Assembly: GCA_000004695.1 (NCBI GenBank)
Contig: CM000152.2
Coordinates: 928,001 to 992,000 of the forward strand
DNA: 64,000 bases
Reading direction: 5' to 3'
Source: Dictyostelium discoideum
Lineage: Eukaryota
In this document: positions 11,971 through 64,000 of the stretch, piece after piece
How the letters are laid out: the number at the start of each line of letters is the position of its first letter
Numbering within the stretch: the stretch's first letter is position 1
Notes under the pieces: generated by a model
Told to the model about the DNA's origin: nothing
The model's database searches: none
What the model saw: the letters and a program-made list of their open reading frames with translations, nothing else
Translations under genes and position numbers: made by a program

Positions 11971-12901
11971 TAGTTGTAGTTATATTAGTATGTTGTTGGA
12001 AAGATAAAAATGGATTTAAAATTGGATCAATTATATATTTAATGGTTAAATGTGGTTGATTATTTAACATTGTTTCAATTATTGATAAAACTGTTTCCAA
12101 TATCTTTCCTTTACTATCTCTATCACGTTGATGTAAGAGATCAATGATTTGAGGTGAAATTTTACTATAATATTCATCAACTTTCATAGTTGAGGGTACA
12201 GTTGTAATTAATTTAACTATATTACCTAATGATTTATTTGAAGTTTTACCATAACTACTATTTGATAAAATTGTATATAAAATGATTTTAATTGATTGTG
12301 GTCTCATTAAACATTTTGATAACATTATACCAATGCATTTTGTCAACCAAATTGGTTGATCATCACCACCACCACTACCACCACCACTTAGTAATAACAT
12401 TAATGATTCAAAAACCAATTCAGGATAAATTCCAAATAATAATGAATCCAATTCTTTAGCAACTAATTGTTTTTCATTTAATGTTAATGGTGATGATTTT
12501 AAATTTATTAATTGTAATAATGATGCGAATAAATCTGATAAATATCTTGAAGCTATAATTGAATTTAAATCTGTATTTAATTTTCTAATTTCAATTAAAG
12601 TACTAATGAAATGATTTAATTGAAAACAACAATACTTTTCATTATCTCTATATATTTTACTAGCATCACCACCATCGCCATGATTATTATTAAAGATTTG
12701 TTCAATAACTAAACTACTACTTGATACTCTTTTACCCATTGGTACACCAATACCTTTTGAAAAACATGGTGATATAATCCATCCAATTAATAAATCTAAT
12801 GAACTTTTTATTGTTTTTTGATCCTAAATATTTAATATTAAAAAAAAAAAAAAAATTATTTTATATTAGAATTTGAAAAATATTTTGTATATAAATTAAA
12901 C

Positions 12902-43317: not shown

Positions 43318-44724
43318 ATGGGTAATATTATCGATAAATCAAAAGATAATCATGAACCTGTGAATCAAGATGCATTTGTATTTTGGAGATCTTTAAAAAA
43401 GATTTATGAAGATCCTGATTCTTTAAATACAAGATTCTCTGAATTCATGGATGGCTTTCAAAATGGTGATTTTAATAATGAATCTTCAAATTCCAAATCA
43501 GGTAAGTTTATTATAATACTAATTAAAATAAAATTTTAAAAAAAAAATAAAAAAAAATAAAAAAAATGAATTAATAATAATTTTTTTTTTTTTTTTACTA
43601 TTTATTTATTAATTTTTAAAAAATAATAAATAAATAAATTAATAAATTAATAAATAAATAAATAAATAAATAAATAAATAGGAAAAAGAGAATCAAAAAA
43701 TGAATCATATGTTTTAATGGGAGAAACATCAAAAGGTGATGTAAAGAAACCAGTTAATTCAAGTAAGATATCATTTGTATTTTCAGAAAGTCAAGAAGCA
43801 GAGGCAATTAATAGAAATTTATTACAAACGATCAATTGTAAATTACAATTGATTCCAATAGAATTGAATCATTTCACATTGAATTTAGATAATCATTATA
43901 TAAGTGAGAGGATGTTTCTCTCTATATGTGCAACCTTTTTAGAGAATAATAAAAACTATCATAATCGTCATATGTCGACAACGTTGAAGGAGACACCATT
44001 GAATACAGTGAAAAAGAAGAAAATTCAATCAGAGTTACAAGATTACATTTCAAAATATTATTTCACAATTACAAAGTTGTCTTTGAAAAAGATATTACTC
44101 TCAACGAGATCATTGGAAGGTTTATCACAAGTTTTGAGAACAAATAGATCAATTGTAGAGTTGGATTTGGGTGGCAATGATTTAAGTTGTAATGGTGGTA
44201 TTCCAATTTTAATCGCAGGTCTAAGGGAGAATAAAACCATCACCCGTTTAAATCTATCAGATATTCATGCATATGATGAAGGTGCCTTTATGATCTCTGC
44301 TTATCTATTGTGTAGTAAATCTGTCAAAATCATTGACCTCTCAACAAATCATATCTCTGACAGAGGTTTCGAGTCATTATTGGCCGCTGTCACTAGAAAC
44401 ACTCTCATCACTTCATTATTCCTATCAGATAATAATATAGAATCATCAAAAATTCATTCTCTAAATCATCTTCTTAAAAGAAATACTGCAATTCAATCGG
44501 TTTTTGATCAAATTTTTGATTCAATCCCTTGGAATAGAAAATTTAAAACAAAGGTAGCTTCATTTAAAAGAAATGTTTTAAAAACTAGAACAAATAGTAC
44601 ATTAAATGTTGAACAAATTGAAGATGATAAAACTCCATTATTTAGAGTAAGTAAAATAGTTTATTTTTATTTATCATTTTTATTTTTAATCATATATTTT
44701 TTTCGCCAGTGGAAAACTGGTTGA
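43318..44724 (+). CDS. Leucine-rich-repeat protein of the ribonuclease-inhibitor (RNI-like) type. Exons 43318..43501 and 43682..44724. There may be a small terminal intron at 44647..44709.
   Basis: RNI-type repeats: RSIVELDLGGNDLSCNGGIPILIAGLRENKTITRLNLSD ... KIIDLSTNHISDRGFESLLAAV ... LFLSDNNIESSK. GTAAGT donor at 43502 and aaatag acceptor at 43680-43681 are phase-consistent. Confidence 0.6.
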
Positions 44725-53523: not shown

Positions 53524-55342
53524 TTATTGAAATAATACACTCTTTTCTAAAGTATACTTTAATATTTCTTCTTCATTATTTGTTGAAAGAATTTTTTCAA
53601 GTTCTTGTTGTTCTTTTTCTTGTTGTTCTTTTTCTTGTTGTTCTTTTTCTTGTTGTTCTTGTTGTTGTTGTTGTTGAATTTCAAAATCTTCTTTCTTTTC
53701 TAACGATACAATATATTTTTCATCATTTATAATTTCTTTATCATTTTCAGTATTGGTGATGGTGGAGGTGGTTTCTTTGTTAATGAAATTTTTTTCAATA
53801 ATTAATTTACCACCACCTTTAACGACATTAATTGGTAAATTTTTAACATTCATTGCAGTATCGAAAACATCTTTTGATATTGAAATGGTTTGATCGGTAA
53901 CTTTGGCAGCATGTTCACCAAATTTATAATTGACTAAATCAACGGTTGTTCCAGTGGCTTCATCATAGACCATACTAATACCATCACCAATTGCACCAAT
54001 GATTGAACCAATTGATTTAATTGTAGTTTTACCGAAATTTAATGCTTCATTTTTATAAATATTTTCTTCTTCTTTTTCTTCTTCTTCTTTTGATTTTTCA
54101 CATTCACATTCACAATCATCACCATCTGAAGGACGGACTAAATTAACAACACCACCACCAACGGTTGCAACTGCGCTCGATAATGAACCAATGATATAGG
54201 AAGAACCTTGTTTAGCATATGAGGTTACGCTTTTTACACCTTCGACTGTGTTTACAATTATTGGTGAAACCTCAGCAGGTTTTTCATTCTTTTCCATAGT
54301 TGACATTAATTTATAACCACCACCTCTTAAACTTAATGATATTATTGAAGATGCTGATAAAATACAAGCAGCAATAGTTTGTGAACCAGAGTCAACACCA
54401 TTTGTTGCAGATTTAATTGAATTGACAACAAAATCAACATCTTTACTTTTCTCTAAAATTGCTGTATCACCATCATCTTTAATTATTAATTTATCGTTTT
54501 CTTGAGAAATTTTTGTAGTAGTAATATCATCTTCTTCTCCATCACCATTTGCAGTAGTTGTAGTAGTAGTTGTAGTAGTAGTAGTAGTTGTAGTTGATTC
54601 ATTTTCATTTGGTAATGTAATTAAAAAAGAGATCAACTCTAACTTTCTTTCAAGAATATCAATATAAACCAATGGTATATTATGAGGGAACAATAAACCG
54701 AAATAATCTTCATCACTCTTTATAACGTAATGACCTTTTGAGTGAATTAAAATTGGTGTTTGTGAAGTTAAAATAAAAGTTTGATTTGAAATACCATTTA
54801 TACCTTGATTTTCATTATTCTTTAATGAATCTTTGAATTTAATTTGAATGTAATGAATTTTATCATTTGCTTTCTTTAAATAAAATATACCACTTCCAAT
54901 AATTTGTTTTTCAATTACAATTTTATTTGTTGACATCAAATGGCCACTTACACCAACGCCACCAACACCACCGCCAATCTTTGGGGAAGATGTTAATTCT
55001 AGTGCTCTTTTTTGTTCGATATTATCTTCTTTCCATTTATAAATTACACATTCTGATATGGTTAATAATGTTGTGTGTTGTTGATTTTCAGTGTTATTAT
55101 TTACATTTTCATCTTTTGATAAGATTCTTCCTTTAATTTCTATAGCTTTATTTCTTTTCTTTATTAATTCAAATCTTATATTTTCAATTTGACATTTTAT
55201 ATTTTCATTAATTTCTTTATCTAAATTTTAATAAAATAAAATAAAATAAAAATTAATTAATTTGTTTAGGAAAAAAAAAAAGATAAAAAAAAAAAAATTA
55301 ATTATTTTAATTTGTTTAAATAAAAAATTATAATTATAATTG

Positions 55343-55433
<91 letters not shown>

Positions 55434-55660
55434 TATATGTATATATTACCTTCAGAGATATCATATGATAAATTAATTGCTTGTAAATAATGGTCAATGA
55501 CTGTGTTTATATGTAATTCACCAACATTACTATCGATGCTATTAATTGTATCTTTTTTTATTGTTTGTTCTATACTATCCAAGATATCATCTGCAATTGA
55601 TTGAATTGATTTACAACTGTATATTGAATTTTCAATTTTGGTATTAGTAATACTTGCCAT
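53524..55660 (-). CDS. Hypothetical protein of about 635 aa with a C-terminal Q/E-rich coiled coil. Exons 55660..55450 and 55220..53524.
   Basis: Exon 1 begins MASITNTKIEN.... GGTAAT donor. The 229-bp intron is filled by (AAT)n. TTTAG acceptor is phase 1+2 (G+AT gives Asp). There is a polyT tract and (QQEKE)n repeats. No recognised domain. Confidence 0.5.
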
Positions 55661-55995
55661 TGTATGTTGGAACAGTTTGTAGTTTTTTTTTTCTTTTTTT
55701 TTTTTTTATTGTGTGTGTGTGTGTGAGAGAGTGGGTGTTGTCAACAGTGTTATGATAATAATTATTATTGTACTGTTTTTACTTTTTTTTGTTTTGGAAA
55801 TTCTATTTTGAACTAAAAAAAATAAAATAAAAAAAAAGTTTAATTAAAATTAAATAATATTTATAATAATTATTAATAATGCAAATAAAACAAAACAATA
55901 AATCTTTTAAAAAACAAAAATAAAAATATAAAAAAAAAAAAAAAAAATAGAAAATAAAAAATTAAATTTAAATTAAAATAAAATAAAATAAAATT

Positions 55996-56036
<41 letters not shown>

Positions 56037-56172
56037 TATTTTATATTTATGTAAGAACTAAAAAAATTGTTAAAAGAAATCTAACGAAGCAAGAGTGAGG
56101 CATTAAAAAAAAAAAATTAAAAAAAAAAAAAAATTAAATAAAATAACCAAGAATTCCAACGTTTTGGTTTAA

Positions 56173-56226
<54 letters not shown>

Positions 56227-56484
56227 CTTTTTTCTAAAAATATGACTTGGTTTTAAAAACTCGTTAGATTACCTGAAATTTTTTTTTTTTTAATTTTTTT
56301 TATTTTTTATTTTTTTATTTTTTATTTTTTTTTTTTATTTTATTTTTATTTTTTATTTTTATTTTATTTTATTTTTTTTTTTTTTTTTGATTCCCAACAA
56401 AGCACTGATTTGATTGATTTAAATTATTTTAATTTTAAGAAAGTTTGTCTTTCTTAAAAATTTTTATTAAACGCTTAAAATAAT

Positions 56485-56496
<12 letters not shown>

Positions 56497-56515
<19 letters not shown>

Positions 56516-56560
56516 TAAAAATAAAAATAAAAATAAAAATAAAAATAAAAATCAAATAAA
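56497..56560. repeat. (AAAAAT)n minisatellite of about 10 units upstream of the LRR-kinase gene.
   Basis: Direct reading: aaaaataaaaataaaaat.... Confidence 0.9.
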
Positions 56561-56667
56561 AGTAAAAATTATCGCTCACACACACATAAACAAAAAAAAA
56601 AAAAAAAAAAAATTCACTAAAAATATTATAATCACCAAATTAATAAACTAAACAAAATAAAAACCCG

Positions 56668-56706
<39 letters not shown>

Positions 56707-56752
56707 AAAAAAATAAAACCAAAGAACGCACCACAGTTAATCGATAATCGAT

Positions 56753-57497
56753 ATGAGTAAAGTTATTGGCTATATTGATTATGGTGACCCGGATGGAAAT
56801 GAAGAACCGTCAAAACAAAATGGTGAATATATAGATTATTCCAATGAAAATGGCTATAATGCTTACCATTCTGTGAATGGTGGTTATGACAAAGATAACA
56901 ACAACCACCACCACCACAATCAAGAGGAAGATTATGATTATGATAATAATACACACGTTAATTATCTAACAACAAAACATTCACAATTTCAATTAAGTAG
57001 AGGACGTTTATATCAGGGTCATCAAAGTTCTCATATAATTTATCCACATCAAAGTTATAAATTAAGTAATAGGTAATGTATATATATATATATATATATT
57101 TTTTTTACGTTTTTTCATTTTATTTATTTTTTTTTTTAAAATCTCACCATTCACACACACACACTTTTGTTCGTATTTTAATTATTAAGAATTTATTTAT
57201 TAACCAATTGACTTTATTATTATTAGTGGCGAAAGTATGAATAGATCAATTAACCAAAGTAAAGAAGAAGATCATTTAGAGAATAGTTTACATGATGATG
57301 AATATTTATATGGATATGAAGATCATCATGATGATCAAGCTAGTAGTATATCACAAGAATCATCACAAGGTTTAGATGAAACTGATTTTGATAATATAGA
57401 TAAATATTTTGAAAGTAATCAACATTTATTGTTACAAACTCTTCAAAATAATAATAATAATAATAGCAATAGCAATAGTAATAGCAATAGTAATAGC

Positions 57498-57553
<56 letters not shown>

Positions 57554-57822
57554 TACTAAAAATAATATAACTGATGAAAATCAATTAGAAATTCATTTAA
57601 ATGATTTATCAATTGATAGTGATAATAGTAATAATAAAATAAATAAACAATATGTAAATAGTGATAATAGTAATAATAATAATAGTAATAATAGTAATAA
57701 TAATAATATTGGAAGTAATATTAATAGTAATTGTAATATAGAAAATGAAAAAAATAGTAATAATACAGATGATAATAATAATAATAATAATATAGAAAAT
57801 GTAAATAAAATAAATATAGAAG

Positions 57823-57921
<99 letters not shown>

Positions 57922-58537
57922 TTGAAGTAATATCAAATAAACCAATTCAATTATTTTCAGATTATGATCCACCAATATTAACAACATCAACATCAACATC
58001 ACAAAGTAAAATAAAAACACAACAACCATTTTTATTTTTTAGTTCAAATTATTTAAATTCAAGTAGTACAGAATTAGATTTATCAGAACAAGAATTGAAT
58101 GAATTTCCAATATTCGATGAGAAAGAGATTGTTCAAGGTTACAAAATCATTGATTTATCATTTAACAATATTAAATCAATACCATTGGATGCATTTACAA
58201 ATATATCAAATCTTGAACAATTGATTATGTTTAATAATAATTTAAGTGATGTTCCATCATCAATTGAATTTTTAAAACATTTAACCATTTTAGATTTATC
58301 ACATAATAATTTACATGAAATTTGTAGAGAATTAGGTAATCTAAGTTTTTTACGTGAATTATATTTATCAAATAATTCTTTAAAAAAGTTTCCAACAACT
58401 GGTAATCTTTATAATCTTAAAAAATTAATTTTAGATAATAATCAAATTACAACTATACCAATTGAATGTGTTGAACCATTAATACAATTACAAACTTTAG
58501 ATTTATCATTTAATAAAATTGGTACAATAACTTCATC

Positions 58538-58569
<32 letters not shown>

Positions 58570-60653
58570 ATAATAATAATAATAATGGTGGTGGTGGTAG
58601 TATTTATCAAAAAATGAAAAATTTAAAACAATTAAATTTATCACATAATGAATTGCAAGAGATACCATCATCATTAAGACATTTATCAAAGTTACATAGT
58701 TTATCAATTGATTATAATCAAATTAGTGTTTTACCAGATAAGGTTGTGGCGTCATTATCACGTTTAGCTAAATTGACAATTTCAAATAATAAAATTAAAC
58801 AATTACCATTTGCAATTAATAATTTATCATCATTGATTGAATTAAATGCTTCAAATAATGTTATTGAACTTTTACCAGATTCAATTTGTTATCTAAGTAA
58901 TTTAAAGAAATTAAATTTAAATAATAATAATTTAAAAGAGTTACCAAGTAATATTGGTTTCTTAACTAAATTAGTAGATTTACAACTTTACAATAATCAA
59001 ATATCATCATTACCAATTAGTTTCTTAAAATGTCGTTCAATTAGAGAGATTGGTACCGATGGTAATCCATTACCTTCATATTATCATCTTGGTATAAAAG
59101 CAATTCGTTATCATATTAAAAATCCTGATTGTGATTTAGATGATCTTAATTCAATTTCACCAACAATTGATTCATCAACAATTGAACAACAACAACAACC
59201 AATTCAATTATTTGGAGGTGGTAATTATATTGATAGTAGTAATAACAATGGTAATGAATCATTTTGTAATAGTGGTGAATTATCACCATTAACTGATAGT
59301 TTAGAATGTATTGAAATGCCACCACCAATGCAAATATCTGAAAACCTTAGAAAACCATTAAATGTTAATTCACCATCTTATCCATTTCAAAAATTAGATC
59401 CAATTCCACAATCACTTTATTCTTCATCTAATCCAAGAAGTCATACTGAATCTGATATTCAAAAATTAAAAAATAATGATGAAACAATAACAACTACAAA
59501 TTCAAGTATTTCTACTACATCATCACCACCATCATTATTATTTGGAGTATCAATTAATGGGAATGGAATTATATCAACAACAACAACAACAACAACAACA
59601 ACAACCACCACCAATGGTAAAACTTTAAGTAGACAATCATCATTTCAACAAATTCCACAACAATTTAATTTATCAACATCAACAACAAATATTACAAAAT
59701 TACCAAGAATTAAATATACATGGGAAATTGATTTTGACGAAATTCAATTCTTTAATTTAATTGGTCAAGGTGGGTTTAGTAAAGTTTATCATGGTGTTTG
59801 GAGAAGTAAAGATGTTGCAATCAAACAAATAGAATTACAAAATAATAAATCATTGGATGATTTTAGAAGGGAAGTTGGTATTTTAAGTAAATTGAAACCA
59901 CATGAAAATCTATTAGCCTACTATGGCGCTTGTAAACATGCAAACTATTGTTACATCATCACAGAATATTTACCAAGAGGTTCACTACATGATCTATTAC
60001 ATCGTGAACAATTGATGAAATTAGATTTTAAACAAAAAGTTAGTTTTGCAATTTGTGTTGCATTGGGTTGTTATCATCTTTCAACCTATGAACCACCAAT
60101 TTATCATACAGATTTGAAAACAAAGAATTTATTAGTTACAAATGCTTTAAAAATTAAAATTGCTGATTTTGGTTTAGCTTCTTTTGCAAAGAAAAGTTTA
60201 ACAACAATAATCAATAATAATAATAATACTAATAATACTGCTACTAGTTCCACTACTACTTCTTCCGCCAATGGCGCAAATAGTATTTCCAACAACAACA
60301 ACAATGGTACAACTTCAGTCGATCAATCAAGATTAGCTTATGCTTTTTATGCTGCACCAGAAATTTTAAATTCAAAACATTTCTCTGAAAAATCAGATGT
60401 TTTCTCTTTTGGTACTATCTTATGGGAATTAGTTACAAATAAAATACCTTTTGATGGAATGGATCCATATGAAGTTAAAGAATTATTAAAATCTGGCAAA
60501 AGATTGGAAATACCTGAAAATTGTAATGAAGTTTTAAAAAATATAATTCAAGATTGTTGGAATCAACAATCTGAAGATAGACCAACTTTTTTAAGTATTT
60601 ATCATCGTTTGGAAAATTTAATGAAATCAATTACAAAAAAAAGGAGATTTTAA
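56753..60653 (+). CDS. Leucine-rich-repeat protein kinase (TKL-like). Two exons: 56753..57072 and 57227..60653. About 1250 aa.
   Basis: About 14 LRRs (LxxLxLxxNxL, e.g. LDLSFNKIGT, LSHNELQEIPSSL). Kinase domain: LIGQGGFSKVYHGVW, VAIKQI, catalytic loop HTDLKTKNLL (non-RD variant), DFGLA and a C-terminal DRPTF. GTAATG donor at 57073 and ttattag acceptor at 57225-57226, phase 2+1 giving AGT. Confidence 0.75.
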
Positions 60654-60829
60654 TCAAAAAAAGAAAAAAAAAAAAAGAAAAAAATAAAAAACAGTGTTCA
60701 AAATTATGGTTCTTAGATAATATCTATTCATATCTTTTTTTTTTTTTTTTTTTTTATCAAAATCTTTAAAACACAATTGTTTTATTTCGTATTTTTAACC
60801 AAGTAATCATCATCTCCATTTTTGTGTAT

Positions 60830-61330
60830 TTAAATAAACGAATAAAAAAAATCTGGTGAAATAAAATCACCTATATCATGTGCGCCAAATGGAACTCTAT
60901 GCCATAACTTTACAAAAAATAAATGGATGTTATTGGAATGGTAAATGATAAGTTTACCTTTAAAATCTTCAAGATGAGATGGATTTACTTTGAGATTTGT
61001 GATTATTATTGGTAAAATATATGCTTCCTTGTAATGCTTTTCTAAATTAATACAATTTTCATAAATGTTTTTTATAGCTTCTTTACCAAGATAGGAACCA
61101 CATGATGAAAATTTAGTATTAATAACAACCATTATATACTTTTTACCAATATGATCATTTGGCAATTCGAAACAAATTCTTATAGAAGTTTGTATTTCCA
61201 CTAGCTAATAAATTAACCGATTTGGTATTATTCGAAGAAATATATACGGTGGTACCTTCAGTTTTTGCTGAGCAAAATTTTATTGCCTTTTGTTAATCTG
61301 TGATTTCCAATTTATCATTGGATCTAAATA
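60830..61330 (-). pseudogene. Truncated, frameshifted tandem paralog of the 3' exon of the downstream NTPase gene, plus part of its intron.
   Basis: About 80% nucleotide identity to 62043..62600, including the acceptor-side intron sequence ctgaaaatgttaataaaa. It has a 2-nt deletion relative to the functional copy, so the ORF-track 'M' is a GTG. No homolog of the Walker-A exon is found upstream. Confidence 0.5.
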
Positions 61331-61908
61331 CATTGTGAAAATGTTAATAAAACAAGTCATAATTTAATGGACGATTTGGATTATCTTTTAAATTAATAAT
61401 GTGAATTTATTCATTCAATTGGATGTCATCATTATCATATAACTCTATGGATTTTAATAATTATTTTCTTTTGTTTTAATTAATTTATTTCCAATATTGA
61501 TAGTTGGTTTTATTTAAATATAAGAATCAAATTCATAAGGTAAACCATATTAAAAAAATGACCAAATATTAAATAAACAAATTAATTTCTTTCAATACCA
61601 TCAATTAATTCTAATTTTAAAGGTGGTGAATGTTTTTAAATAATAAATGTTTTGTTGTTTCATTCAATTGATAATGCTTCTTCTAATGATGTGACACCAG
61701 TTTGGTTGGAACATGAATAAAAAAGGTTTTTCTAATATTAGAAAATTGATTTAAAGTTTTATTATTTTTCCAATTATTATTATTAATAATATTAAAATAT
61801 TTATAAATGTTATAAAAAACATTATCAATTTCATATAAAAATACAAGTTATATTTAGTATTTTTAAAAAATCATCATCTCCATATTTGTGTTTAAATATA
61901 TGAACAAA

Positions 61909-61944
<36 letters not shown>

Positions 61945-62042
61945 ATTTACTAATTTTTAAGTAAAATACAGTTTATACTATTTGTTATTTGTTATTTATT
62001 AATTGAGCATTTCTAAAAATACTCGAGAGATTTTATAATATT

Positions 62043-63997
62043 TTATAAAGAAATGTTTTCTAATTCTTTGCAGAGGTTTAAATCTGGTGAAATAAAATCA
62101 CTTGTATCATGTGCACCAAAAGATACTCTATGCCATAACTTTCCAAAAAATAAATGGATGTTCTTGGAATGGTAAATGATAACCTTTCCTTTATTATCTT
62201 TAACATGAGATTGTTTTACTTTGAAATTTGTGATTATTATTGGTAAAATATATGCTTCTTTGTAATGATTTTTTAAATTGACACAATTTTCATAAATGTT
62301 TTTTATAGCTTCTTTACCAAGATAGGTATCACAATTTGAAAATTTAGTATAAATAACAACCATTAAATGCTTTTTACCACCACTTAAGTTTGACAATTCA
62401 AAACAAATTCTTATATCGAAGCTTGTTTTTCCATAACCTAATAAATTAACTGAATTGGTATTATTCGAATAAATATGTTCCTTGTTGTCCTCTGTTTTTG
62501 TTAAGCCAAATCTTATTGCATCTTGTGGATCTGTGATTTCTAATTTATCGTTGGATCTAAATATATTCTGAAAATGTTAATAAAATATTCAATATTGAAA
62601 AAAGTGTAATAAAATATGTTTCTGATATCTTACCTATATAACCATTTGGAGGTATGTTGATATAATATAACATTACGTATCTTTACTTCAATAACTGCTA
62701 ACTCATGACTAATATCATTATCCAATGGAAAAAATTTGACTAATTTTGAAATTGTATTATTGCTACTTTCGACAAAGGTGTTGATTTTGTTGAGGATAAG
62801 AATTGCTATATTTTCTTCAAATGGGGTAGATTTAGTATAATCGATTAAAGGGAATTTTGTTAATTTTTCTAAATGTGATATTTTTAATTTTTGTGCAATT
62901 TTATAAAGACCAAAAATTGGTACAAATATGACATTTCCTTCAACCGCTTCGTCATATTGAAGGAATAAGTGGCCAGTGTACGACCAATATTCTATGGTTT
63001 TGTCGCATACTATGGTGCTCCAACTTACTGGTATCCTGCAAATAGAGAGATATAAAATAGTTTCCCAGAATTTATTATCTACTATTTTAACAGATTGAAC
63101 TTTTTTAACCAACTCTATTCCAAGACCACTGATGAAAGATGGAATGTCTATATCGTCTTTTTCAATGTTTTTCATTAATTCTAAATCCAATAACCACTGA
63201 AGGTATCTTGGAATTACACCAAGATCTCTAATAAATATGATAAATAATTTATCTTCTAATATTGTGGTCGTTGGTTTATTCTGGAGTATTGGTATATTAA
63301 ATCTATGTTTGATTATATCTTTACAAGATTCATAGCTTAATGGTGTTAAAGTAATTGATTTATAAGTCCACTGTGAGAGATGAATTTCGTGTTGTAAAAT
63401 TGTTGTGGTACCAGTTAATATTGGAATTATAAAAACATTACTAAGGGAGGCATCAGATTGGTCGGTTCCTTTACATCTATAAAATCCCAACAATTCTATC
63501 ATTTGCTTTATAAAATGTTGATTTTGTGTACAAGCTATTTCGTGTGCCATGGGAAATTCATCCAAGTGGATAAGAATAGAGAGAGTGTTTTTACCTCCAT
63601 GACCATGGTCACGACTATACAACTTAGAAATATAATGCAAAACATTTTTTACAGTAAACAAATGTTTCTCTTCTGTGTATAAATTTAAATTTGATCCAGC
63701 CAATGATGAACCTAAAACTCCTCTGATGAATAATCTTTTTGCGAGAGCCACTTGACAGGTATCTTCTTTTACTTCTTCAATTGAAATTGCATCACCGCCA
63801 CCGTTGAAGTCAATAAATATATACATTAAATTCTTCATTGTTTCTGCTAATTCTTTATTTCTCTTCCATTGATTACTCTTTAAAAAATTCCAACACTCTC
63901 TGCCAAATCTTGTTTTACCAATACCAGAACCAGTTAAACATTGTAAAAAGTAGTGATTTACTCTTTCTTTATCATTTGCAATAAAATAGTTGAACAT
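62043..63997 (-). CDS. P-loop NTPase of an unassigned family, possibly STAND/AAA-like. Exons 63997(or beyond the window)..62634 and 62556..62043. The 5' end may be truncated by the window edge.
   Basis: Walker A LTGSGIGKTRFG and Walker B-like LSILIHLDEFP. GTAAGA donor at 62633 and TTTAG acceptor at 62558..62557, phase 2+1 giving AGA. The C-terminal exon encodes HLMVVIYTKFSNCDTYLGKEAIKNIYENC.... Confidence 0.55.
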
Positions 63998-64000
63998 TTC

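Follow-up and report, generated by a model that had tools for sequence, protein, structure and literature searches.

Pairing of an AAA+ ATPase with a PD-(D/E)XK domain (DUF234) is known from prokaryotes (PMC3424549). The archaeal and bacterial ATPase_2 proteins [PF01637, for example PAB2304 (2qen) and SSO1545 (2fna)] are often fused to this domain. PD-QxK, the catalytic pattern of Mrr, is found fused to winged-helix and NTPase domains (PMC11037411). The locus described here lies at the right end of a 64 000-nucleotide stretch of Dictyostelium discoideum AX4 chromosome 3 (the window), and encodes an ATPase predicted to resemble these proteins. Our main reading, to which we give a probability of about 60%, is that the gene DDB_G0278513 and a dead copy of its last exon belong to a three-piece array specific to the AX4 lineage, and that the protein is an ATPase with a candidate nuclease-fold domain from a defence-like family.

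An intact gene in a three-piece tandem array

DDB_G0278513 is on the minus strand, as are all of its features given below. Exact look-up identifies its 741-residue spliced product as Q54XZ3, labelled 'hypothetical'; the 90% cluster of the AX4 protein is represented by a 207-residue fragment (P0032). ORFs next to it in the window are likewise exact matches to AX4 proteins. The 3' five-sixths of the gene (625 codons) are inside the window and the start is some 425 bp past its right edge; the missing 5' end was taken from L005, an independent assembly of an AX4-like strain. An earlier note, made from the window sequence, had placed an NTPase gene at 62043..63997 and supposed that it might pass the edge. 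Its motifs, intron and last exon hold and the gene does extend, but the start was wrong, the ATG at 63997 being internal. The large middle exon (62634..64000 in the window, with the ORF open to the edge and the exon running beyond it) is 100% identical to L005 12894-14258 and codes for the ATPase core (AAA+/STAND-like), for the lid and winged helix, and for the C-terminal domain as far as its first helix. It contains the Walker A motif GSGIGKT (63911-63931), the Walker B motif HLDEFP (63551-63568, in the context ILIHLDEF), a sensor-1-like LTGTT (63404-63418), GVIPRY (63203-63220) and PFEEN (62810-62824). The second intron (62557..62633; 77 nt, GTAAGA...TTTAG, GT..AG) interrupts a codon after its second base, and removing it joins both frames and recovers the alignment to homologues as well as the annotated protein. 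The last exon (copy A, 62043..62556) codes for most of the C-terminal nuclease-like domain, including SFDIR (62409-62423) and IYTKF (62340-62354), and ends in the stop codon TAA at 62043-62045.

The relic in the window, copy B, begins 690 bp downstream of this stop codon. Positions 60849-61352 match 62080-62585 with 85.8% identity over 506 bp (blastn, E = 1e-168), far beyond chance. By blastn and alignment to copy A the match consists of a last-exon relic (60849..61323, minus strand) headed by 29 nt of the 3' end of the intron (61324..61352, minus strand); the upstream exons are absent. The earlier note had described such a partial duplicate, with the 3' exon and part of the intron, a breakpoint inside the intron and a 2-nt frameshifting deletion, and all of this is borne out; the deletion lies between 61185 and 61184 and destroys a conserved Asp codon. 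It had overlooked two further lesions, an in-frame TAA at 61295-61293, ten codons past the retained acceptor, and the loss of about 166 bp corresponding to the last 12 codons and 3' UTR of copy A. The segment kept in copy A and deleted in copy B (61914..62079, minus strand; breakpoints from blastn and alignment) holds these 12 codons (LNLCKELENISL), the stop codon, the 3' UTR and an A-run, and its C-terminal motif LNLCKxLENISL is conserved in all intact homologues. The 'different 3' flank' that had been reported for the copy is this deletion. The flank repeat downstream of copy B (F', 60768..60851, minus strand), which adjoins the 3' end of the LRR-kinase gene, is 81% identical to that downstream of copy A (F, 61838..61913, minus strand), and F matches the gene-to-kinase intergenic DNA of single-copy strains.

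Copy B contains a 100-codon ATG ORF (60830-61132, minus strand), annotated in AX4 as DDB_G0278511 (100 aa; exact match Q54XZ4) and predicted again in strain ACTFIT. This ORF and the retained AG acceptor (61324-61325) are what could be expected of a functional small gene or of an alternative terminal exon of DDB_G0278513, which we nevertheless hold to be very improbable. Splicing into copy B would give a stop after 10 codons (61293-61295), the invariant Asp codon has been removed by the 2-nt deletion, the conserved C-terminus is deleted, the start of the ORF falls in the middle of a β-strand of the C-terminal domain, and the substitutions that separate copies B and C suggest neutral change (omega 0.74; 12 nonsynonymous and 4 synonymous). 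With its parental intron and flank sequence, its position close to the parent and its disabling lesions, copy B has the characters of a non-processed duplicated pseudogene. Copy B is a dead exon, a decayed duplicate as the earlier note supposed and not a usable alternative exon, and DDB_G0278511 is mis-annotated as a gene.

The array has three pieces: copy C (5'-truncated and frameshifted), copy A (intact) and copy B (last exon only). Copy C, absent from the earlier note, is DDB_G0278515; it lies just outside the window and was obtained from L005. Since L005 has the same arrangement and is 99.9% identical to the window, the array is not an assembly artefact. Window positions 61605-63404 are 91.7% identical to L005 9930-11721 (copy C), and 61336-61618 are 87.8% identical to L005 11797-12066 (the spacer after copy C). 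The block at 60849-61352 is closer to the copy C block (96.2%) and to the single proximal gene of strain ACTFIR (93.5%) than to copy A. The spacer between copies A and B (61353..61837, no strand) is part of the tandem unit; it has no counterpart in the single-copy loci L001-L004 and does not resemble the gene at the protein level. A 17-bp junction repeat (TTTTATTAACATTTTCA) at 61336-61352 recurs identically at 62569-62585, and a 16/17 match is found at the boundary of spacer and upstream sequence of copy A in L005. Either tandem duplication or unequal recombination probably gave rise to the array, and deletions came after; one deletion has its breakpoint at the 17-bp direct repeat. A simple unequal crossover between distal and proximal paralogues was rejected, as the genes that lie between the two, over 12 kb, are intact in the AX4-like strain.

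The AX4 annotation already lists the gene and both relics (DDB_G0278513, DDB_G0278511 and DDB_G0278515). A literature search with these identifiers found no paper mentioning any of them, and a search of the literature on B-box, STAND and REase in Dictyostelium brought up nothing that describes the family.

The ATPase and its accessory domains

The order of domains in the protein is a putative N-terminal B-box zinc finger, linker helices, the P-loop ATPase, a lid and winged helix, and a C-terminal α/β domain. The B-box region lies outside the window and was absent from the earlier note. The B-box profile (PF00643, cut-off 24.1 bits) scores 26.8 bits in the family member P0006, 29.6 in P0008 and 17.5, below the cut-off, in DDB_G0278513, which keeps H-x-C...CxxC...CxxC...HxxH in a region of low AlphaFold confidence. 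N-terminal domains vary in the family (B-box, SAM or other).

No Pfam model reaches its cut-off for either the 625-residue product of the window, a search that the earlier note had proposed, or the AX4 protein, and PADLOC and NCBIfam give nothing meaningful for the AX4 protein and nine diverse members. A structural model was made with AlphaFold for P0003, a paralogue from another strain that is 80% identical to the AX4 protein, with 42 diverse sequences as input (pLDDT 84.8, pTM 0.81; with 9 close sequences only, pLDDT is 35). In this model Walker A and Walker B sit on a core of five strands, modelled with pLDDT above 90; after the core come a helical lid and a winged helix, and the whole can be superposed on solved members. 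Foldseek returns Cdc6/Orc1 as the top match; the predicted NBD-lid-winged-helix unit aligns equally with NLR, CED-4, Avs and Orc1/Cdc6, and best with archaeal ATPase_2. The G-K of Walker A and the D-E of Walker B are at least 90% conserved in the 42 diverse members and, like the LTGT threonine and a G..P motif, are nearly invariant in the family. On the model, the protein is a P-loop ATPase of the Orc1/Cdc6-ATPase_2-STAND structural class.

The earlier note's P-loop NTPase is thus confirmed by the Walker motifs in the ORF and by the modelled core, and its 'STAND-type' label stands as far as the structural alignment with NLR, CED-4 and Avs goes; it fails as regards specificity, a repeat sensor and an above-threshold Pfam match. 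For the window protein and the 42 members there is no above-threshold NB-ARC, NACHT or nSTAND match in Pfam. Below threshold, nSTAND3 and NPHP3_N each match one of the 42 members (E about 0.045) and, far below threshold, ATPase_2 matches two (E about 0.047). DUF234 (PF03008) matches none of the 42, nor the isolated C-terminal domain at E up to 10. Pfam finds no repeat-type sensor (LRR, WD40, TPR), and in the model the last 240 residues form a single compact α/β domain. A full-length profile run against PDB sequences matched the PIN region of DIS3 (E = 0.12), which was rejected since the predicted β-meander topology does not fit a PIN fold; the other matches were P-loop noise.

The C-terminal domain conserves E...DxR...(Q/N)xK, an Mrr-like pattern that the earlier note overlooked. 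In the family the E is present in 10 of 12 members, the D in 16 of 17, the R in 15 of 17 and the K in 14 of 17; the first residue of motif III is Q in 11, N in 3, E in 1 and D in 1, and the spacing from D to QxK is about 20 residues. The residues characteristic of Mrr-like domains [helix Glu, strand-2 Asp and (D/E/Q)xK] are therefore found in the family, whereas DDB_G0278513 itself departs at the first position of motif III. Its own motif is D...YTK, with Tyr (IYTKF) in place of the usual Gln, a position that is Asn in the Dictyostelium B-box subfamily, and to judge from these residues this protein may be catalytically dead. The modelled order is helix 511-529, several short strands, strands 608-611, 621-627 and 634-642, helix 652-668 and strand 672-680; these elements have pLDDT above 90 and their order is consistent with an αβββαβ core. 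Fold searches with the whole protein list only ATPase matches, and a profile of the C-terminal domain gives 0 matches to PDB sequences and no nuclease family in Pfam, including Mrr_cat and all PD-(D/E)XK families, both at E up to 10. PADLOC and NCBIfam, searched with the AX4 protein and the nine diverse members, were without a meaningful match. The domain, which the earlier note had not recognised, is indeed without a profile match in PDB or Pfam. From the motif and the predicted topology we infer an Mrr-type restriction-endonuclease fold.

Variation between strains and the standing of other readings

Homologues fall into 173 representative clusters among 1.84 billion representatives. They come from Amoebozoa, Capsaspora and metagenomes, a patchy distribution across eukaryotes, and no single-copy orthologues across Amoebozoa were found; a full-length homologue is present in Pithovirus LCPAC104 (E = 6.8e-15 over 612 columns). 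A profile search of a word-indexed protein database returned only close Dictyostelium proteins. Three related strains, ACTFIR, ACTFIW and ACTFIY, carry just one gene here, next to the kinase, and of the compared strains only ACTFIR and ACTFIW have the distal paralogue; the ACTFIZ homologue sits in an unrelated genomic context. Flanking genes are collinear in all strains compared. A search with a second Dictyostelium subfamily (P0034) found, in four other strains, four full-length homologues and a more distant protein (37% identical); AX4 had no member among the cluster representatives, which may hide one. The locus is structurally polymorphic among strains of the D. discoideum complex, and with copy number and position differing between strains this is not a housekeeping single-copy family.

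Compared at silent sites, the last exon of copy A differs less from the distal paralogue found in other strains (dS about 0.066) than from its proximal orthologues (0.2-0.29). The last exon of the intact copy thus appears to have been exchanged with another paralogue, a mosaic origin that the earlier note did not contain. The comparison of dN/dS among paralogues that it had suggested gives 0.4-0.5 (0.40-0.47) in the ATPase exon and higher values in the last exon (0.5-2, the value of about 2 not being significant, p about 0.1).

The C-terminal domain might have no catalytic function and serve to bind or sense something (DNA, RNA or a ligand, for example), the protein then being an ATP-dependent switch or scaffold that does not cleave. 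The acidic residue of (D/E)xK has become Gln in most members, Asn in the Dictyostelium B-box subfamily and Tyr in DDB_G0278513, and no catalytic nuclease profile is matched, all of which makes this a possibility to be reckoned with, if a rather doubtful one. However, the D, the K and the upstream helix Glu are kept across very divergent members, as is typical of a maintained active site, and PD-QxK is accepted as an Mrr-type catalytic pattern (PMC11037411). The pithoviral homologue, the different genomic position in ACTFIZ, the presence or absence of the distal copy and the patchy distribution would also suit a family carried as cargo of mobile or viral DNA, through giant-virus exchange or a selfish element, with relics left by repeated insertion and excision and not by host defence. 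Yet the surroundings of the locus showed no sign of a transposase, an integrase, terminal repeats or a tRNA target, and the genes on either side are collinear; the additional copies, with their common flank and spacer, are tandem duplicates of local origin, and the genes have spliceosomal introns of Dictyostelium type; we regard such an origin as unlikely. A conserved role in DNA transactions and not in conflict (as an Orc1/Cdc6-like loader, or as a repair ATPase with a structure-specific nuclease), to which the relics would be incidental, is harder still to reconcile with the small number of clusters, the lack of single-copy orthologues in Amoebozoa, the variation in copy number, location and intactness between close strains and the weak purifying selection (omega 0.4-0.5), and is in our view quite improbable.

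A defence-like family of ATPases with a nuclease-fold domain is the reading we prefer. It is plausible that these proteins act in conflict or defence as ATPase-nucleases: the family is patchy and fast-changing, which fits defence, and would behave as a dispensable conflict family with fast turnover. Of the rapidly evolving immune or self-recognition family proposed in the earlier note, the turnover of copies and positions between strains stands; the immune or self-recognition role is one that we infer. ATP binding and hydrolysis would take the protein from a closed to an assembled state and back, in the manner of Orc1/Cdc6 and STAND proteins, and so place or activate the C-terminal nuclease-fold domain on nucleic acid, with the B-box providing protein-protein contacts; both the oligomeric switch and the catalytic activity are presumed in this scheme. 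A more far-reaching proposal is tentative and must be thought doubtful: that the relatives in Amoebozoa, Capsaspora and the pithovirus form a new eukaryotic family of ATP-switched nucleases, which resemble in their design, and may share ancestry with, prokaryotic defence proteins of the AAA+/STAND-nuclease kind (ATPase_2-DUF234, Avs and Mrr-NTPase fusions), that they serve social amoebae as a strain-variable system of innate immunity or self/non-self recognition, and that the relics reflect recent birth-and-death turnover.

Significance and comparison with known systems

For the locus, the result is a correction to the annotation, the AX4 'genes' DDB_G0278511 and DDB_G0278515 being decayed pieces of DDB_G0278513. 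For the family, it is an architecture without a Pfam model, consisting of an adaptor (B-box, SAM or other), an Orc1/Cdc6-STAND-like ATPase, a winged helix and a D...QxK domain, found in protists and a giant virus. Should these proteins prove to be ATP-gated defence nucleases, they would offer a tractable case for how much prokaryote-style immune logic survives in eukaryotes, and Dictyostelium genetics makes them testable; if they are not, DDB_G0278513 is an ordinary lineage-specific gene with pseudogene debris.

Copy B shares with the non-processed pseudogene fragments of other tandem arrays its intron sequence, its tandem position and its stop, frameshift and truncation; nothing sets it apart from ordinary duplicative pseudogenes except that two relics are annotated as protein-coding in the reference genome. 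Compared with the Orc1/Cdc6 initiator ATPases, the family is neither universal nor single copy, has no sequence-level match to them, and has in addition the putative B-box and the C-terminal α/β domain. Unlike STAND proteins (NB-ARC plant NLRs, CED-4/Apaf-1, NACHT NLRP3, Avs3/Avs4) it is without C-terminal LRR, WD40 or TPR sensor repeats; its sensor 1 is a Thr (LTGT), and the nuclease-like domain is C-terminal, directly after the winged helix. ATPase_2 proteins are similar in structure, but the present family is eukaryotic or giant-viral, with spliceosomal introns and an N-terminal B-box or other adaptor. From Mrr it differs in domain order, in having no detectable profile similarity to Mrr_cat, and at the Q position, which is Tyr in DDB_G0278513 and Asn in close relatives. 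The pattern D...QxK, the Glu in the preceding helix and the spacing of about 20 residues nevertheless resemble the PD-QxK of Mrr in type IV restriction enzymes and wH-Mrr-NTPase fusions and, as in those fusions, the domain is associated with a winged helix and an NTPase.

The intact gene and its relics

On the minus strand of the AT-rich window (GC ~20%), the large exon of DDB_G0278513 (copy A) runs from the right edge, to which its ORF is open, down to 62634 and encodes Walker A (GSGIGKT, 63911-63931) and Walker B (HLDEFP, 63551-63568). A 77-nt intron (GTAAGA...TTTAG, 62633-62557), which interrupts a codon between its second and third bases, separates it from the last exon (62556-62043), which ends in TAA. 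Spliced, the in-window part amounts to 625 codons, as an earlier note on this DNA had described. That note began the gene at the ATG at 63997, giving 62043..63997, but this ATG is internal: every homolog extends some 115-135 residues further at the N-terminus, and in L005, a locus from an independent assembly of an AX4-like strain (GCA_054883475.1; 7.7 kb aligned to the window at 99.9% identity), the start lies 425 bp past the window edge; the 5' part has a B-box-like Cys/His cluster and a first exon followed by an intron of 80 nt. Splicing yields 741 aa, a sequence identical to Q54XZ3, the existing annotation of DDB_G0278513 as a ‘hypothetical protein’, so the suspected extension past the right edge is real. 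The AX4 protein is missing from our homolog-search lists because its 90% cluster is represented by a 207-aa fragment; non-listing in such cluster-representative searches does not mean absence of the protein. Other window ORFs match AX4 proteins exactly [RtcB homolog (EAL68413), alkaline phosphatase (Q54Y02) and DDB_G0278691], and ORF 43717-44721 has its sole exact match in an unnamed entry from sequencing-run assemblies.

The convergent neighbour of the array (57237-60653, plus strand) encodes leucine-rich repeats and a protein kinase (Pfam PK_Tyr_Ser-Thr 1.4e-59, LRR_8 3.7e-32) with long poly-Asn/Thr tracts. It is presumably DDB_G0278509, judging by locus-tag order, and since its orthologs have 1242-1335 aa the ORF probably lacks an upstream exon.

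Between the two genes, copy B (60849-61352) aligns with 62080-62585 at 85.8% identity over 506 bp (blastn, E = 1e-168). The homology begins 29 nt inside the intron, where the earlier note had put the breakpoint, and the AG acceptor is kept (61324-61325). Copy B is nevertheless a non-processed pseudo-exon and not an alternative exon: spliced to the upstream exon it would give RSNDKLEITD and then TAA (61295-61293); the 2-nt frameshifting deletion already noted, between 61185 and 61184, eliminates the codon for an Asp that is near-invariant in the family; and the tail is lost. The 3' sequences of the two copies do differ, as had been reported, but the flank itself is shared: 60768-60851 corresponds to 61838-61913 at 81% identity, and the difference is therefore a deletion of about 166 bp (61914-62079 of copy A) that took the 3' UTR and the codons for the C-terminal LNLCKxLENISL, present in every intact homolog. 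With three independent disabling lesions and zero upstream exons, copy B retains a 100-codon ORF (60830-61132) that carries the AX4 annotation DDB_G0278511.

A third copy, C, lies outside the window, directly upstream of DDB_G0278513 (L005 9930-11721, window-equivalent about 65170-66960). It is homologous to copy A from window-equivalent 63404 to 61605 (91.7%); promoter, B-box and both Walker motifs are missing, and the rest of its large exon is broken by a stop and by frameshifts. DDB_G0278515 (106 aa) is the annotation of its last exon, which is intact; the gene calls of strain ACTFIT split copy C into two genes, of 207 and 175 aa. The spacer between copies A and B (61353-61837, ~485 bp) is homologous to the spacer that follows copy C; it shows no coding similarity, and other strains with a single copy have nothing equivalent at the locus. 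The block with the copy B last exon is closer to copy C (96.2%) and to the single ACTFIR gene (93.5%) than to copy A (85.8%). At the head of copy B the junction is a 17-mer, TTTTATTAACATTTTCA (61336-61352), identical to intron positions 62569-62585 and matched at 16 of 17 positions where the post-C spacer meets the region upstream of copy A (L005 about 12050-12066). The position of this 17-bp repeat, right at the junctions of duplication and truncation, fits microhomology-mediated recombination, and recombination at this short direct repeat may have cut down, or created, copy B. We put the probability of this gene and pseudogene anatomy at about 0.9. The recognition of the annotated AX4 genes DDB_G0278511 and DDB_G0278515 as relics is new here, as are the three-piece array and its strain polymorphism; the locus otherwise reflects ordinary birth-and-death of a lineage-specific gene already annotated as hypothetical.

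Strain comparison and mosaic origin

A single gene, here called proximal, lies between an Oxidored-like gene and the LRR-kinase gene in ACTFIR, ACTFIW and the outgroup-like ACTFIY. The ancestral state is therefore likely a single proximal gene, with the three-piece array derived in the AX4 lineage. ACTFIR and ACTFIW have in addition a distal paralog 12 kb upstream, between a 557-aa and a 910-aa gene (L003 10001-12426, L004 10001-12421); the AX4-like strain and ACTFIY lack it there (L005 475-1285, L006 297-1159). The ACTFIZ homolog lies in an unrelated genomic neighbourhood.

By sequence comparison, copy A is a mosaic of both types. The ATPase-coding exon and the 3' UTR belong to the proximal type (63500-63800: 92-98% identity to proximal genes, 71-88% to distal), whereas its last exon is nearer the distal type (89-90% versus 86%), with dS 0.066 to distal and 0.20-0.29 to proximal genes. 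Exchange between paralogs is the simplest reading. The AX4 last exon is most like the distal type even though the AX4-like strain lacks the distal paralog at its site.

The ACTFIR and ACTFIW loci, labelled D. discoideum, differ from window positions 54001-64000 by about 9-10% at the DNA level, genes included. Such a value is probably far above usual within-species diversity, and these may be cryptic species. The ACTFIR ortholog (P0001 residues about 118-146; L001 10440-10528) contains ANHYFLQCLTGS twice, a putative short in-frame tandem duplication spanning the region just before, and into, Walker A. A second Dictyostelium subfamily (P0034, P0189-P0192) has a different, non-B-box N-terminus; four full-length members, 67-100% identical, occur in four non-AX4 strains, P0192 is more distant (37%), and no AX4 member was among the matches to the P0034 search.

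Architecture of the protein family

No Pfam model matches the AX4 protein at cut-off: the 625-aa in-window product has zero matches, and the full-length protein has a sub-threshold B-box as its sole match. PADLOC and NCBIfam likewise yielded no meaningful match. Profile searching, carried out exhaustively over 1.84 billion cluster representatives, identified only 173 relatives (E < 1e-3); those that could be traced come from Dictyostelium, Cavenderia, Synstelium, Arcella, Luapelamoeba, Capsaspora and unassigned metagenome contigs, and they are unnamed proteins throughout. Across the family, hardly any variation is seen at the G-K of Walker A, the D-E of Walker B, the LTGT threonine, the G..P motif (DLGVIPRYL) and an Arg that follows strand 2. 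The AlphaFold model of P0003, an 80%-identical paralog (42 diverse sequences; pLDDT 84.8, pTM 0.81), has Orc1/Cdc6 as its best Foldseek match; the central 330 residues therefore form an ATPase, lid and winged-helix module of the Orc1/Cdc6-ATPase_2-STAND kind. Some members give weak sub-threshold matches to AAA_22, AAA_16, ATPase_2 and nSTAND3. The ‘STAND-type’ label of the earlier note holds to this extent, but STAND proper is not assigned because there is neither a profile match nor a repeat sensor. The N-terminus is a predicted B-box: DDB_G0278513 scores 17.5 bits (cut-off 24.1) with the ligand pattern kept, and the homologs P0006 and P0008 pass the threshold. Other members have a SAM domain or unknown domains in its place.

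The ~240-residue C-terminal domain, which the earlier note did not recognise, is common to distant family members. Its conserved elements are F-E on a helix (E 10/12) and G-N...D-x-R (D 16/17, R 15/17); some 20 residues on, the next strand ends with [Q 11, N 3, E 1, D 1]-x-[K 14, R 2], and a helix and an I-T-N strand come after it. In the P0003 model these motifs map, at pLDDT above 90, to one helix, a run of three strands, another helix and one more strand, and restriction-endonuclease (PD-(D/E)XK) cores have their elements in this order. For the Mrr catalytic domain, of which fusions with winged-helix and NTPase domains also exist, the published pattern is D...QxK (PMC11037411), and fusions of AAA+ ATPase and PD-(D/E)XK (DUF234) domains are a catalogued prokaryotic architecture (PMC3424549). 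A profile of the domain matched nothing in PDB or Pfam, and DDB_G0278513 has Tyr at the Q/N position (IYTKF, 62340-62354). On balance we lean, by a small margin, towards a nuclease fold. New here is the domain description of this uncharacterised protist and giant-virus ATPase family with its probable Mrr-like domain.

A full-length structural homolog occurs in Pithovirus LCPAC104 (BFVD A0A481Z7L9, 624 aa; Foldseek E = 6.8e-15, 612 aligned columns, 18% identity), and the match suggests host-virus gene exchange.

Selection and possible role

The earlier note, whose observations were right and whose interpretation was partly so, had proposed testing dN/dS among paralogs. Omega is 0.40-0.47 for the ATPase exon; for the last exon it is 0.5-0.7 in comparisons with orthologs and about 2 against the distal type, the latter not significant (p about 0.1). 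These values point to weak constraint on the family. The protein probably acts as a switch gated by ATP, in which assembly depends on the nucleotide state, as it does in Orc1/Cdc6 and STAND proteins; what the C-terminal Mrr-like domain does to nucleic acid would be under the control of this switch, and the B-box would serve as an interaction module. Patchy distribution, swapped N-terminal domains, pseudogene debris and copy number and position that vary among close strains characterize the family. Because it is patchy, polymorphic and weakly constrained, with exchanged N-termini and a pithovirus homolog, it behaves in a conflict- or defence-like manner; an actual role of this sort is a tentative proposal that we consider rather doubtful. 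In these respects the DDB_G0278513 family may be likened to NTPase-nuclease proteins of the conflict type.
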